DNA of 44,087 nucleotides from a virus (taxonomy: Duplodnaviria > Heunggongvirae > Uroviricota > Caudoviricetes): the IMG/VR virus record IMGVR_UViG_2541047944_000002, positions 1-44,087 of that record. The stretch is one strand, 5' to 3'. The position numbers and the translations under genes were made by a program. The notes beneath the pieces are model-generated. The model saw only the letters and a list, made by a program, of their open reading frames with translations, had not been told where the DNA came from and did no database searches. The first letter of the stretch is position 1, and every line of letters starts with the position of its first letter. Below are positions 6,601 to 23,058 of this stretch, piece by piece.

Positions 6601-6813
6601 GTCATCAACAACGGGCAAATTGACGCGAACAGGTTTTTTAAAGTCATCTTCATCGTAGCCAGCATCGTCAATCGCAACAGCACCACGGGAGATGGCAATG
6701 GATAATTTTTTCGCTTCAGCCCAGTAGAAACCGCCTTTAATACCGAGACGTTTTCTTACTTTGTCATTTTTTGCTTCGTAATACAGTGGGTAAACTTGTT
6801 TATCGGTGCTCAT
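3667..6813 (-). CDS. recE: Exodeoxyribonuclease VIII (RecE)-like, enlarged 1048-aa form
   Basis: Long ORF upstream of recT-like gene; C-terminal nuclease region and Rac-like context; contains acidic low-complexity stretches and a Cys-rich segment ([16 protein letters not shown]). Confidence 0.65.
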
Positions 6814-6883
6814 TGTTTTTTAACCTCAACTCAGATTAAAATTACTGCGAGTGATGAATAAATGTCCCAGGTTCTTCACTCAG

Positions 6884-7188: not shown

Positions 7189-7262
7189 GTTTTTCTCCTT
7201 AATTAAGGTTGAGCGAATCCCTGCCATTGCTGGCATAAATTCAGTTTCGGATAGTCAGTTAA

Positions 7263-7439
7263 TTAAAGTTCGTGTGCCATCTGGTCTTTTTCGGCACAGA
7301 TTTCACTACAATATTTTTTCATTTCCGTCGTTGGTATAACTCCACGCATGAAATGAAGTGGTCTTGTAATGATTTTGCTTTCTTCAATTTCTTTATTGCA
7401 AAGGTGATAAGCACATTTTATTTTCTTAGTCATTACCAT
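7263..7439 (-). CDS. Small zinc-binding protein, Rac YdaE-like (58 aa; below ORF-track cutoff)
   Basis: Found by manual translation: [21 protein letters not shown]...[15 protein letters not shown]; Cys pairs; sits between the racC-like and kilR-like genes as in Rac. Confidence 0.45.
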
Positions 7440-7654
7440 GACTCCGCCTTTACAGGTAAACCATCACGACCGAGGAAGACTTTAATCATGCAGTCAGAAA
7501 TGCATGTTTTTGTAGTCAGGCTACGAATATAAAGTTTTCGCTTTTTAATATTGTTTGCCGAGGCGATATATGTCCGACCTTCATGAAGAACATAATCGCC
7601 AGGGGTCACACACTGACGTGGTATTTCATCAGTTCCGAAGTGATGAGCAATCAT
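7433..7654 (-). CDS. kilR: KilR-like cell-division inhibitor
   Basis: 73-aa ORF from internal Met with GGAG RBS ([29 protein letters not shown]...); recalled as Rac KilR; kil position in the leftward early operon. Confidence 0.55.
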
Positions 7655-8051
7655 AATTATCTCCATTTTTACAAATGAATTTTGTCGATGCGGTGCCTGG
7701 TGCCTCCAGGTGACGTTAACCAGTTAACAATTAACGCCGGATAATCCACCCATAACACTGATGCTTTTAACTGTGCCGCGTGCGCTTAGCCGCATTCACC
7801 GCATCACAAAATTCACTTTAAAAAGGGCGGACATCAGCCGAACTTCAAGAAAAAAACTGATGCCGCCAGGACTACACACAGCAATGTCGTTATTTACAAC
7901 CGGAGGCGCACTCACACCATTTAAATTTAACAGACAAGACCGACTCTTTATGAATACCGGAAATGCGCCTTCGTGTTGTGCCCGGTTTTATTTCACCACC
8001 TCCGGGCTTTGGTGGTATCTTTACTGAAGTTCTCACACAACCAGTAAGGAA

Positions 8052-20553: not shown

Positions 20554-20716
20554 AACACCCCAGCCAGATTTACCCGACCCGTTTACGTGGGGAGCCAGCC
20601 TTAACCTGAATGTTGCGTTGTTGTCAGCGTTAGCACAGTGCAACAGGGATAAGGCTGATATCAGGACTTTTGAGAAAAACAGGGCAGCACAAACCAATGG
20701 CACGATTAAACGTTGA
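20438..20716 (+). CDS. o-spanin (Rz1-like lipoprotein), overlapped architecture
   Basis: MMIALFVLFLLAQLSGC lipobox signal peptide, Pro-rich mature region; starts inside Rz in another frame. Confidence 0.5.
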   Translation: MMIALFVLFLLAQLSGCTNTRTVYVSVPVIPLPASLTAETPQPDLPDPFTWGASLNLNVALLSALAQCNRDKADIRTFEKNRAAQTNGTIKR

Positions 20717-20882
20717 AGTTATCCCACCAGACAGCGAAACGATGAACGAGATTTTTGCAGAGATTGAACGTAAATATGCGCATCAGCCGATGACGCCAAA
20801 AGTTATCGATGAAATGCAACGCGAAGCGGCGCGCCTTGTAAGGCGAGTGACAAACACGAAGGTTACGTTTGTTCGGGACTGA
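20697..20882 (+). CDS. Hypothetical small protein
   Basis: ORF between lysis and terminase genes; weak RBS. Confidence 0.3.
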   Translation: MARLNVEVIPPDSETMNEIFAEIERKYAHQPMTPKVIDEMQREAARLVRRVTNTKVTFVRD

Positions 20883-20939
20883 CATTATCGAAGCTCCTTT
20901 GATAAGGGGCTTCGATAATGTCACTAAGAGGAAAAATTC

Positions 20940-21689
20940 ATGGCAAAACCGGACTGGGAGGCCATCGAATCGGCATACCGGGCCGGAGTCCTTAGCCTCC
21001 GTGATATAGGCGAGAAATACGGCGTTACAGAAGGGGCTATCAGGAAGAGGGCCAAAAAGCTTGGTTGGGTACGCAGTGGCGGTACGCAGGTTTGCAAAAA
21101 TGGTACGCAAAAAAGAAAAGTGCGTACCAGCAGAAAGCCTGCCATTACTGGCCTTACACAAAAAGGTACGCAACCAAAAACAGAACCTACACTGGATACG
21201 AAACCGATACGCGGAATGCGTACCGATCCCCCGACTAACCCATTCCAACCCGGTAACCAGCAGGCATTAAAACACGGTGGTTATGCCCGTCGCCTTCTGC
21301 TCAAAGATGAGGTGATAGAGGACGCTAAAGCGTTGACGCTCGAGGACGAATTATTTCGCCTTCGTGCTAACAACCTTGTCGCTGCAGAGAATATTGGTCG
21401 GTGGCTGGTGTCGCTGGAAGATGCTAATGGGGACCAGGAAAGGAAGATGCTGATGGAAAATATCAGCGCCGCCGAGAAAGCAATGATGCGCAATACAGTT
21501 CGTATTGAGTCCATCGTTGGCACGCTTGCGACGGTAGGAAAAATATTTGCTGATACAGCCTACCGCAAGGCCGCCACTGATAAGGTGTCTCTGGAGGCTG
21601 ATCGTCTTCGCCGTGATGCAGGTATTGATGATGGCAATGGAGAGCGTGACCTCAATGACTTCTACTCTGACATCCAAACCGACGCTTAA
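20940..21689 (+). CDS. Terminase small subunit
   Basis: N-terminal HTH-like segment (LSLRDIGEKYGVTEGAIRKRAKKLGW); directly upstream of large terminase; internal GTQ repeats from a repeated DNA octamer. Confidence 0.65.
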   Translation: MAKPDWEAIESAYRAGVLSLRDIGEKYGVTEGAIRKRAKKLGWVRSGGTQVCKNGTQKRKVRTSRKPAITGLTQKGTQPKTEPTLDTKPIRGMRTDPPTNPFQPGNQQALKHGGYARRLLLKDEVIEDAKALTLEDELFRLRANNLVAAENIGRWLVSLEDANGDQERKMLMENISAAEKAMMRNTVRIESIVGTLATVGKIFADTAYRKAATDKVSLEADRLRRDAGIDDGNGERDLNDFYSDIQTDA

Positions 21690-23058
21690 TCCGGCTTTAC
21701 GTAGTTTCTGGACTACGCGGGCACGTAACAAAGTGCTTTATGGTGGCCGGTCATCGTCAAAATCATGGGATGCCGCTGGCATTGCCATATTTCTGTCGAA
21801 TAAATACACCCTGCGTTTTTGTTGTGCCCGTCAGATCCAGAATAAAATCGAAGAGTCGGTTTATACCCTGCTCAAAATTCAGATAGACAGGTTTGGCCTG
21901 CGGCACCGTTTCCGGATTCTGAACAACAAAATCATTAACCGGGTTACTGGCTCGGAATTTGTTTTTTATGGATTATGGCGCAACATCGAAGAAATTAAAT
22001 CACTGGAGGGGATCGATGTGTTGTGGCTGGAAGAAGCCCACGCACTGACGGAATACCAGTGGAAAATTCTGGAGCCAACGATCCGTAAAGAGGGTTCGGA
22101 ATGCTGGTTCATATTCAACCCCGGACTTGTTACTGATTTCGTCTGGCGCAACTTCGTTGTTGATCCGCCCGAAGGCACTCTCATCCGCAAAATTAACTAT
22201 GACGAAAATCCGTTTCTGTCTGACACCATGCTTAAGGTTATCGACGCGGCGCGACGCCGTGATCCGGATGGTTTTAAACATGTGTATGAGGGCGTTCCGG
22301 AGTCTGATGATGATGCGGCAATCATCAAACTGTCCTGGATAGAAGCCGCAGTGGATGCGCACAAAACGTTAAATTTCGAACCCAGTGGAAGAAAGCGTAT
22401 TGGCTTTGACGTGGCTGACAGTGGTACAGATAAGTGCGCTAACGTTTACCGTCACGGATCCGTTGTTTTCTGGGCCGACGAATGGAAGGCCAAAGAAGAT
22501 GAATTACTGAAGAGCTGCCAGCGTACTTATCAGGCGGCGCTGGAGCGTGAAGCAGATATTGTTTACGACTCTATCGGTGTTGGTGCGTCTGCCGGTGCTA
22601 AATTCTCTGAAATTAACGCTGACCGGAAGAGCGAGAATGCATACGCGCGACGTGTGAATTACCAGAGGTTTAACGCTGGTGCTGGTGTGCATGAACCAGA
22701 TGACGAATACAACGGCATCCCCAACAAAGACTTTTTCGCAAATCTTAAGGCTCAGGCATGGTGGCTGGTGGCTGACCGTTTCAGAAATACGTTTAACGCC
22801 ATTAACAACGGAGAACAGTATCCTGTGGATGAGCTGATCAGCATAGATTCTCGTTGTCCGTTGCTTGAAAAGCTGAAACTGGAACTGACAACACCTCATC
22901 GCGATTTTGACCGTAACGGACGTGTGATGGTCGAAAGTAAAAAAGACCTCGCAAAACGCGAGATACCGTCACCAAACGTTGCTGACGCATTCATTATGGC
23001 CTTCGCGCCAATTGATACATCGCTGGATATCTGGGAACAGCTGGGGAGACAGGCCTGA
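21637..23058 (+). CDS. Terminase large subunit (start at 21637 or 21655)
   Basis: ATPase then nuclease architecture typical of TerL; position between TerS and portal. Confidence 0.8.
   Translation: MESVTSMTSTLTSKPTLNPALRSFWTTRARNKVLYGGRSSSKSWDAAGIAIFLSNKYTLRFCCARQIQNKIEESVYTLLKIQIDRFGLRHRFRILNNKIINRVTGSEFVFYGLWRNIEEIKSLEGIDVLWLEEAHALTEYQWKILEPTIRKEGSECWFIFNPGLVTDFVWRNFVVDPPEGTLIRKINYDENPFLSDTMLKVIDAARRRDPDGFKHVYEGVPESDDDAAIIKLSWIEAAVDAHKTLNFEPSGRKRIGFDVADSGTDKCANVYRHGSVVFWADEWKAKEDELLKSCQRTYQAALEREADIVYDSIGVGASAGAKFSEINADRKSENAYARRVNYQRFNAGAGVHEPDDEYNGIPNKDFFANLKAQAWWLVADRFRNTFNAINNGEQYPVDELISIDSRCPLLEKLKLELTTPHRDFDRNGRVMVESKKDLAKREIPSPNVADAFIMAFAPIDTSLDIWEQLGRQA

Follow-up and report, generated by a model that had tools for sequence, protein, structure and literature searches.

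The small terminase subunit (TerS) selects viral DNA for packaging; the way in which it does so has been debated for a long time, and few headful phages have an identified pac site. A few systems are described well enough to serve as references. In P1, the work attributed to Sternberg and Coulby in 1987 is said to have placed pac in ~160 bp of pacA, where seven hexamers (TGATCA/G) in two groups are needed for the headful start. These hexamers contain Dam sites and cleavage is methylation-controlled; we know of no helix-to-site code described for P1. In P22, also a headful phage, the recognition site was reportedly (by Wu et al. in 2002) found embedded in the coding sequence of gene 3. In lambda-like phages, the R3, R2 and R1 sites of cosB are bound by the winged helix-turn-helix (HTH) of gpNu1, specificity variants exist in lambda, 21 and N15, and the terS gene of N15 contains a further, accessory site in inverted orientation, rR2 (PMC4669245). 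The pac of SPP1 and SF6 (pacL, pacC, pacR; TerS G1P) consists of sets of direct repeats spanning the terS start, and the DNA is thought to be wrapped round an HTH ring; the repeats are moderately conserved, and the SF6 DNA-binding domain has little sequence specificity and uses 'conformational selection' of bent DNA (PMC4737164). Here we analyzed a 44,087-bp stretch of DNA from a tailed phage, an E. coli prophage (positions 1 to 44,087 of IMG/VR record IMGVR_UViG_2541047944_000002, hereafter the window), whose terS gene contains a dense array of the octamer GGTACGCA. We conclude that this array is probably the DNA that the cognate TerS, encoded by the phage itself, recognizes to start packaging, and hence a probable pac site.

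An exact match search of the window finds six copies of GGTACGCA, all inside 21068–21224 (157 bp), in agreement with the four direct and two inverted copies listed in the original prediction. The array and the gene that holds it are laid out as follows:

20940–21689, + strand: terS, small terminase, 249 aa (PHROG 370, E=7e-95)
21068–21075, + strand: copy 1, GGTACGCA, direct; frame tGG GTA CGC Agt, read as W-V-R-S
21081–21088, + strand: copy 2, GGTACGCA, direct; frame GGT ACG CAG, read as G-T-Q
21089–21096, + strand: decayed copy GGTTTGCA; intact GTACGCA at the same place in Klebsiella-phage relatives
21102–21109, + strand: copy 3, GGTACGCA, direct; G-T-Q
21121–21128, − strand: copy 4, inverted (TGCGTACC on the + strand); gTG CGT ACC, read as V-R-T
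21154–21160, + strand: decayed copy TTACACA; GTACGCA there in several relatives
21165–21172, + strand: copy 5, GGTACGCA, direct; G-T-Q
21196–21213, + strand: ATACGAA (21196) and ATACGCG (21207), both direct and degenerate, recognized by alignment with relatives
21217–21224, − strand: copy 6, inverted (TGCGTACC); aTG CGT ACC, read as M-R-T

In total, six exact and four weaker copies occupy ~160 bp, mostly at a spacing of 12–13 bp, and they are organized as runs of direct copies that are each ended by an inverted copy. The two inverted copies (21121 and 21217) are 96 bp apart; copy 3 and inverted copy 4 form a 9-bp inverted repeat (21101–21109/21121–21129) with an 11-nt gap. The copies at 21196 and 21207 are degenerate in all relatives, yet highly conserved as such. 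The clustering, put forward as non-random from the start, is confirmed by 100 dinucleotide-preserving shuffles, which contain 0.87 octamers on average and three at most, against the six observed. Variants with one mismatch show no enrichment over the window as a whole (32, with 27.8 expected); this result and the low counts in the shuffles show that exact copies are clustered locally and that base composition does not account for them. What is conserved at the core of each copy is the heptamer GTACGCA, which is expected by chance about four times per 44 kb. The array shows two properties expected of a pac site: it is a unique address in the genome, since all six octamers and six of the seven heptamers of the 44 kb fall in this single 157-bp cluster, and it lies in the phage's own small terminase gene, at nt 129–285 of terS.

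The terS product is identified as a small terminase by its full-length match to PHROG 370 'terminase small subunit' (E=7e-95 over residues 1–248) and by its position upstream of terL, and its N-terminus also matches PHROG 1206 (E=1e-22). The AlphaFold model (mean predicted local distance difference test score, pLDDT, of 63 owing to the disordered linker; shallow alignment with 15 close homologues) consists of an N-terminal HTH at residues 6–41 (helices 6–15, 20–27 and 31–41; pLDDT 80–89), a linker at residues 48–98 that is predicted to be disordered (pLDDT about 30), and a core of two long helices (107–161 and 165–199) and a shorter one (206–226). Weak Pfam matches to HTH_AsnC and Sigma70_r4 at residues 17–41, together with a marginal match to LrpA, the only one obtained with a profile of the HTH (recognition helix aligned, E=0.013), place the recognition helix at about E31–L41 (EGAIRKRAKKL). 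Pfam and NCBIfam contain no family model for this TerS beyond the weak HTH matches, the PDB sequence search with the full TerS protein gave no match, and Foldseek with the full-length model against the PDB returned insignificant coiled-coil matches only. The array, which corresponds to residues 43–95, coincides almost exactly with the DNA encoding the disordered linker.

Evidence that ties the array to TerS comes from covariation. By de novo k-mer clustering followed by tabulation over 188 loci, we found that the central bases of the heptamer change together with two residues of the recognition helix, with no exception and no cross-association (residues 31, 32 and 35 are listed):

E31-G32..R35: GTACGCA, about 145 loci
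D31-T32..R35: GTTCGCA, 5 loci
H31-G32 or H31-S32..N35: GTATCCA, 9 loci
H31-T32..N35: GTTTCCA, 2 loci
H31-A32 (T33)..L35: GTAACCA, 3 loci
H31-N32 (T33)..L35: GTGACCA, 1 locus

Specifically, residue 32 tracks base 3 of GTnnnCA (G, S or A with A; T with T; N with G), while residue 35 tracks bases 4–5 (R with CG, N with TC, L with AC). All classes share one layout, usually with three direct copies ~15 and 12 bp (or 12 and 13 bp) apart and an inverted copy 15–18 bp past the last direct one. Identical helix–motif pairs recur on different TerS backbones (200-aa, 172-aa and 245-aa types). At locus L089 the peptide is still V-R, and just the synonymous Val codon differs (GTA to GTT), in step with the helix. 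Additionally, all copies within an array, including the inverted and out-of-frame ones, carry the same variant, a pattern that drift would not generate. These data indicate that the specificity is coupled to the TerS recognition helix, which backs the link to the terminase proposed from the window alone, and the conservation of exact heptamers across bacterial classes, taken with the helix covariation, implies direct base readout. We lean, by a small measure, towards a TerS family with a simple readable code, in which residue 32 would specify base 3 and residue 35 bases 4–5, the array would be housed in the family's own linker DNA, and the specificity cassette would be transferable and combined with several unrelated TerL motors.

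The HTH belongs to a large family, with at least 1,762 clusters at 50% identity matching it at E<=1e-3. Some members (P0131, 444 aa; P0137, 450 aa; P0139, 836 aa; P0121 and others) contain 2–8 tandem HTH copies per polypeptide, and such proteins could read heptamer arrays as monomers. Distant HTH variants, with the helix SSTIRARAK or ESTLRARAK, occur in Pseudoalteromonas phage vB_PalP_Y7 (L183) and Shewanella phage vB_SbaS_Y11 (L184). No GTnnnCA array is present within their terS genes; other repeat clusters lie upstream of terS, at −110 to −76 in L183 and −340 to −298 in L184 (CGCGCAA in four to five copies; ATAGCTAA in four), and may be the cognate sites of these variants.

The repeats could also act at the protein level, as a basic linker of GTQ, VRK or RT units, or be a product of neutral replication slippage, the DNA motif being a by-product in either case. 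Copy number does vary by clean in-frame 12-bp indels of the unit TGGTACGCAAAG (window 21100–21113 vs relatives, alignment columns 174–185 and 239–250), which yield TerS lengths of 249–266 aa among otherwise similar genes and one extra copy in L055, and collagen-like GTQ repeats encoded by GGTACGCA exist in other phage genes (L192, L236 and L259). However, a protein tandem repeat keeps a constant multiple-of-3 period in one frame and one orientation, and the true ones keep a strict 9- or 15-bp period, whereas the array copies are spaced irregularly by 8, 12, 13, 15 and 21 bp and occupy two forward reading frames plus the reverse orientation in terS. The original statement that the repeats generate GTQ holds for three direct copies and fails for the copy at 21068 (W-V-R-S) and for both inverted copies (R-T). 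Moreover, the peptide differs among families while the DNA is identical. The genes of phages GF-2, Edno5, HK639, SEN34, ST101phi6.1 and 2b-LV (PHROG 1206) have only the N-terminal HTH in common with the window TerS, and they carry three or four GTACGCA just 3' of the HTH-coding part, as GTA CGC Axx (V-R-K/T); in PHROG-370-type genes the same heptamer stands in the G-T-Q frame (GGT ACG CAA), in contrast to the V-R-K/T of the GF-2/HK639/SEN34 type. Some TerS genes combine both frames with an inverted copy.

Synonymous positions are fixed in the array. The Thr codon of T-Q in the array zone is ACG in 250 of 259 cases (97%, background 26%), and for V-R the Val codon is GTA in 74% (background 14%) and the Arg codon CGC in 77% (background 34%). 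Among 56 PHROG-370-type genes, heptamer columns are 96.0% conserved vs 88.1% for the remaining linker (p=2e-5), and the corresponding values at third codon positions are 95.4% and 83.5% (p=0.004). Heptamer density was determined for TerS genes with an EGAIRK-type helix, for the most part in 127 loci from IMG/VR and GTDB genomes, ranging over Enterobacterales, Achromobacter, Methylobacterium, Comamonas, Pseudomonas, Moraxellaceae, Luteibacter and several lineages of metagenome-assembled genomes (MAGs); 651 heptamers fall in 89 kb of TerS open reading frames (ORFs; 7.3 per kb), whereas the flanks, 526 kb in all, hold 52 (0.10 per kb). The array, whose presence in related terS genes had been named as a check on its function, is retained throughout: near-identical E. 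coli and Shigella genes have lost at most one copy, and the genes at ~88% identity, from Klebsiella phages Mulock, GZ7, ST16-OXA48phi5.2 and others, retain six to eight, again with losses of single copies at most. Selection acts on the array DNA rather than on the peptide. The prediction of a DNA-level function, made from the mixed orientation, is backed by the frames, the fixed synonymous codons, the helix covariation and the relocation described below. The protein-level idea was rejected on reading frames, codon usage and array relocation, the linker being moreover predicted to be disordered and the array persisting outside coding sequence, and we regard it, slippage included, as highly improbable.

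The usual location of the array is inside the TerS-linker DNA, and several relatives have it elsewhere. In two high-GC proteobacterial MAGs (L157 and L167) with the same recognition helix, terS is without copies and the linker without V-R motifs; the array, GGTACGCA-n7-GTACGCA-n5-GTACGCA-t-TGCGTAC, sits 1.0–1.5 kb upstream, at the 5' end of another ORF. Pantoea phage PdC23 has its array, GGTACGCAAAA-TTGCGTAC-TTGCGTAC, in the non-coding spacer preceding terS. Locus L216 (IMGVR_UViG_2597490214_000015, an 8,865-bp contig) contains a complete PHROG-370-type array at 6680–6840 as non-coding DNA, with no HTH-coding part upstream; a 148-aa HTH-less ORF after it (7213–7659) resembles the TerS C-terminal part only (38% identity over 72 aa, E=6e-7). 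This contig, which also carries a DUF2280 gene after the 148-aa ORF, as well as DUF927, Dit-like and gpV-like genes, may represent a prophage remnant or else a satellite that has kept its helper's packaging site. L206 has a similar array without the HTH.

These locations bear on the possibility that TerS binds the array for autoregulation, limiting terS/terL expression by occupying its own coding DNA or mRNA, while packaging starts elsewhere. Such a role would suit a site within terS and upstream of terL, next to a probable RNA hairpin that marks the region as one carrying expression-level signals, and the covariation establishes the coupling of TerS to the site, not what the coupling does. 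However, arrays that lie 1–3.7 kb from terS, in another ORF or a spacer, fit a genome address better than an operator, L216 retains its array without an HTH-containing terS, and the established role of TerS DNA-binding domains is recognition of the packaging site (PMC4669245, PMC4737164). Autoregulation is in our judgement unlikely.

The HTH and the array behave as a module. They are found with at least three TerL types (Terminase_3, Terminase_6N and types without a Pfam match), and the TerS C-terminal region varies among lineages together with the TerL family. The TerS of Klebsiella phage vB_Kpn_Chronis (L003) closely matches the window gene as far as the end of the HTH and array and then departs sharply from it into a different C-terminal half, with the recombination joint right after the array (gene position ~300, aligned to window ~21240). 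This joint fits an HTH and array that move as one specificity cassette. The last inverted copy of Chronis is mutated (GCGCACC).

We also searched in reverse, scanning IMG/VR without reference to protein for three GTACGCA 1–8 nt apart. The scan returned 120 contigs, 90 of which have a TerS-type HTH within 400 nt upstream on the same strand; two more are cut by the contig end and one has the HTH 3.7 kb off. About 11 are true protein or simple repeats (collagen-like GTQ with a strict 9-bp period, AQVRT with 15 bp, and 8-bp microsatellites), and in the remaining contigs the array has other surroundings, such as a primase gene on one side and a helicase gene on the other in a high-GC phage. The scan also informs on whether the array binds another protein, such as a host factor or phage regulator, or is a recombination hotspot at module boundaries. 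The mosaic joint just past the array in Chronis, and similar arrays between replication genes of an unrelated high-GC phage, speak for this explanation. Yet specificity follows the TerS helix and nothing else among the features examined, and array and HTH occur together in three quarters of the arrays found blind to protein, which leaves another binder or a hotspot with very little probability. In two high-GC viral contigs (L193:6793–6845 and L231:3521–3560), four GGTACGCA at an 11-bp period are accompanied by an inverted copy, with more copies within 250 bp. They are flanked by a helicase gene and by a primase-like gene of 1,139 aa, with no TerS HTH within ~13 kb, and it looks as if an unrelated system employs the heptamer here as an iteron or operator.

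Together, the covariation, the selection on DNA and the co-occurrence of array and HTH strongly suggest that TerS physically binds the array, and by analogy with other terminases packaging would start there. In the mechanism that we propose, the recognition helix E31-G32-A33-I34-R35-K36-R37 of the N-terminal three-helix HTH would read GTACGCA. TerS proteins form oligomeric rings with HTH domains about one helical turn apart (PMC4737164), and the window TerS is presumably oligomeric and may wrap DNA likewise. The array would offer many weak neighboring sites to this oligomer, several HTH domains of which could engage adjacent copies at the 12–13-bp spacing, and a 7-mer common by chance would be turned into a unique, high-avidity genome address. 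By analogy, the TerS–DNA complex would recruit TerL through the TerS C-terminal region, and TerL would cut the concatemer nearby, so that a series of headfuls begins. Packaging polarity could be set by the asymmetry of the array, in which each direct run ends in an inverted copy and the two inverted copies are 96 bp apart. A disordered linker would tolerate almost any sequence, so its DNA can house the site; with the site in linker-coding DNA, the DNA-binding domain and its site would travel together as a ~300-bp cassette. Two phages with the same HTH and array, vB_EhrS_49 and vB_EhrS_59, are reportedly headful packagers (PMC7317114), and the prophage, whose TerL is of the Terminase_3/PBSX family, may be one as well.

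Several points weigh against the array being a pac site read by TerS. The helix and the site are linked within ~200 bp, so common descent could contribute to the covariation, although the variant shared by every copy of an array and the recurrence of the pairs on different TerS backbones speak against this. GTACGCA arrays are present in a few unrelated contexts as well, such as the high-GC phage replication genes. In SF6/SPP1, the best-studied case of a ring TerS, pac DNA is bound regardless of its sequence (PMC4737164), which shows that TerS proteins do not as a rule read specific sequences. The literature search found neither binding experiments nor mapped termini for any phage with a TerS of this family: the genome announcement of phage Mulock contains nothing on termini or terminase, and a full-text search for GTACGCA with terminase gave irrelevant matches only. 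The last point concerns folding, since the segment 21060–21235 folds at −55.8 kcal/mol vs −42.1 kcal/mol for shuffles (z=−3.5).

The folding energy also favors a reading in which RNA or single-strand hairpins, formed by direct and inverted copies, control translation or stability of the terS–terL message; the 9-bp stem between copies 3 and 4 would be one, and the direct/inverted pair recurs in most families. For a hairpin, however, a single direct and a single inverted copy suffice, so that three to eight direct copies spaced by 12–13 bp are not accounted for, and in L157 the inverted copy lies 1 nt from the last direct copy, where no hairpin loop is possible. Such hairpins would also leave unexplained why the central bases track two recognition-helix residues, and no Rfam family matches 20600–21400. 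We therefore hold this RNA reading to be very unlikely. All four alternatives jointly account for about a quarter of the probability, each clearly less likely than recognition of the array by TerS for packaging, and most of that share comes from the link of the site to packaging initiation, which is a putative one.

Further records were considered for their termini. The RCIP0034 and RCIP0098 records break inside terS, but both are SPAdes contigs that were not oriented, and the break therefore tells nothing about termini. Mecenats66, whose pac has been mapped experimentally, was rejected as a relative because it has a single GpA-type terminase and is unrelated.

The surroundings of the array comprise a second conserved element and the large terminase gene:

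20880–20923, + strand: conserved stem-loop just upstream of the terS ribosome-binding site; a neighbor, not an established part of the array
21628–23058, + strand: terL, Terminase_3/PBSX family, overlapping the terS 3' end; start codon uncertain (ATG at 21628, 21631 or 21637)

The stem-loop has invariant flanks, CATTACAG ... CGATAATG, and a variable inner stem of ~8 bp with compensatory changes. Across the aligned sequences 98.6% of cells are paired vs 34–51% in slid controls, and double changes occur at 8 of 14 pairs. It is present in 78 of 187 related loci (for example L001:1474–1509 and L116:1408–1443), with TerS of the GTACGCA, GTATCCA and GTAACCA types, usually at −55 from the terS start and sometimes at −118 to −1216. 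A U·G pair is found in 24 of 26 sequences, and this wobble points to RNA on the sense strand; the stem-loop is probably an RNA element. It has no U-tract, the Rfam search of the interval given above found no family for it either, and a promoter/terminator scan stayed at background level.

The gene order is lysis cassette, terS, then the Terminase_3/PBSX-type terL and a portal gene. Where terS overlaps terL, the window gene stops at TAA (21687–21689). Its Klebsiella-phage relatives read GAA there and run on for a further nine codons (...ESGPA); one G-to-T substitution shortens the window TerS. A prophage of E. coli APEC E19057 carries the gene with 100% identity (NZ_CP126934.1, 1507380–1508129), labeled 'hypothetical protein' by RefSeq/PGAP, and terS matches are present in 207 of 5,426 complete E. 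coli genomes.

This TerS family is large and unannotated and has an obvious multi-copy site. It provides at least six natural specificity variants, which differ at only two helix residues and three bases, and makes specific vs non-specific recognition, site valency, spacing and orientation directly testable. If the code is true, this would be the first TerS family whose packaging specificity can be predicted from sequence and re-programmed, and a clear counter-example to the sequence-independent SF6/SPP1 model. It would allow pac sites and packaging compatibility to be predicted in many Enterobacterales, Pseudomonas and other proteobacterial prophages, the plasmids, islands and chromosomal regions that transduction can mobilize to be anticipated, and packaging signals to be designed for phage-based DNA delivery.

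Compared with the described systems, the closest in logic is lambda-like cosB. Both have several short repeats beside or inside terS, one of them inverted, which TerS binds in lambda and probably here too, and in both the differences in the recognition helix match those in the site, a match that sets packaging specificity in lambda and would do so here. The differences are also clear: lambda has three sites of ~12–16 bp, needs an IHF bend, and places them beside the nicking site cosN in a cos phage, whereas the window family has 7-bp sites, 4 to 11 per array, 12–13 bp apart, mostly in coding sequence and with a headful-type TerL. The window TerS has no sequence relationship to Nu1 and no Nu1-family match, and its TerL is of the PBSX type, not the lambda gpA type (no search aimed at cohesive ends or an IHF site was made). 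In overall layout, no system comes nearer than P1 pac. No GTACGCA copy contains GATC, as the P1 hexamers do, and P1 PacA and PacB are unrelated to the window TerS. With SPP1/SF6 the locus shares direct repeats at terS and, presumably, an HTH ring with domains about one helical turn apart; it differs in that its heptamers are exact, stay the same from one bacterial class to another and change along with the helix. With P22 it shares a site within small-terminase coding sequence; the P22 site is single, asymmetric and ~22 bp long, with DNA binding assigned to other parts of gp3, while the window site is a multi-copy heptamer array and its TerS has an N-terminal HTH. The array thus belongs to a known kind, in which short repeats within terS or close to it make up the site that the terminase recognizes, and what would add interest is a readable code in a large family.

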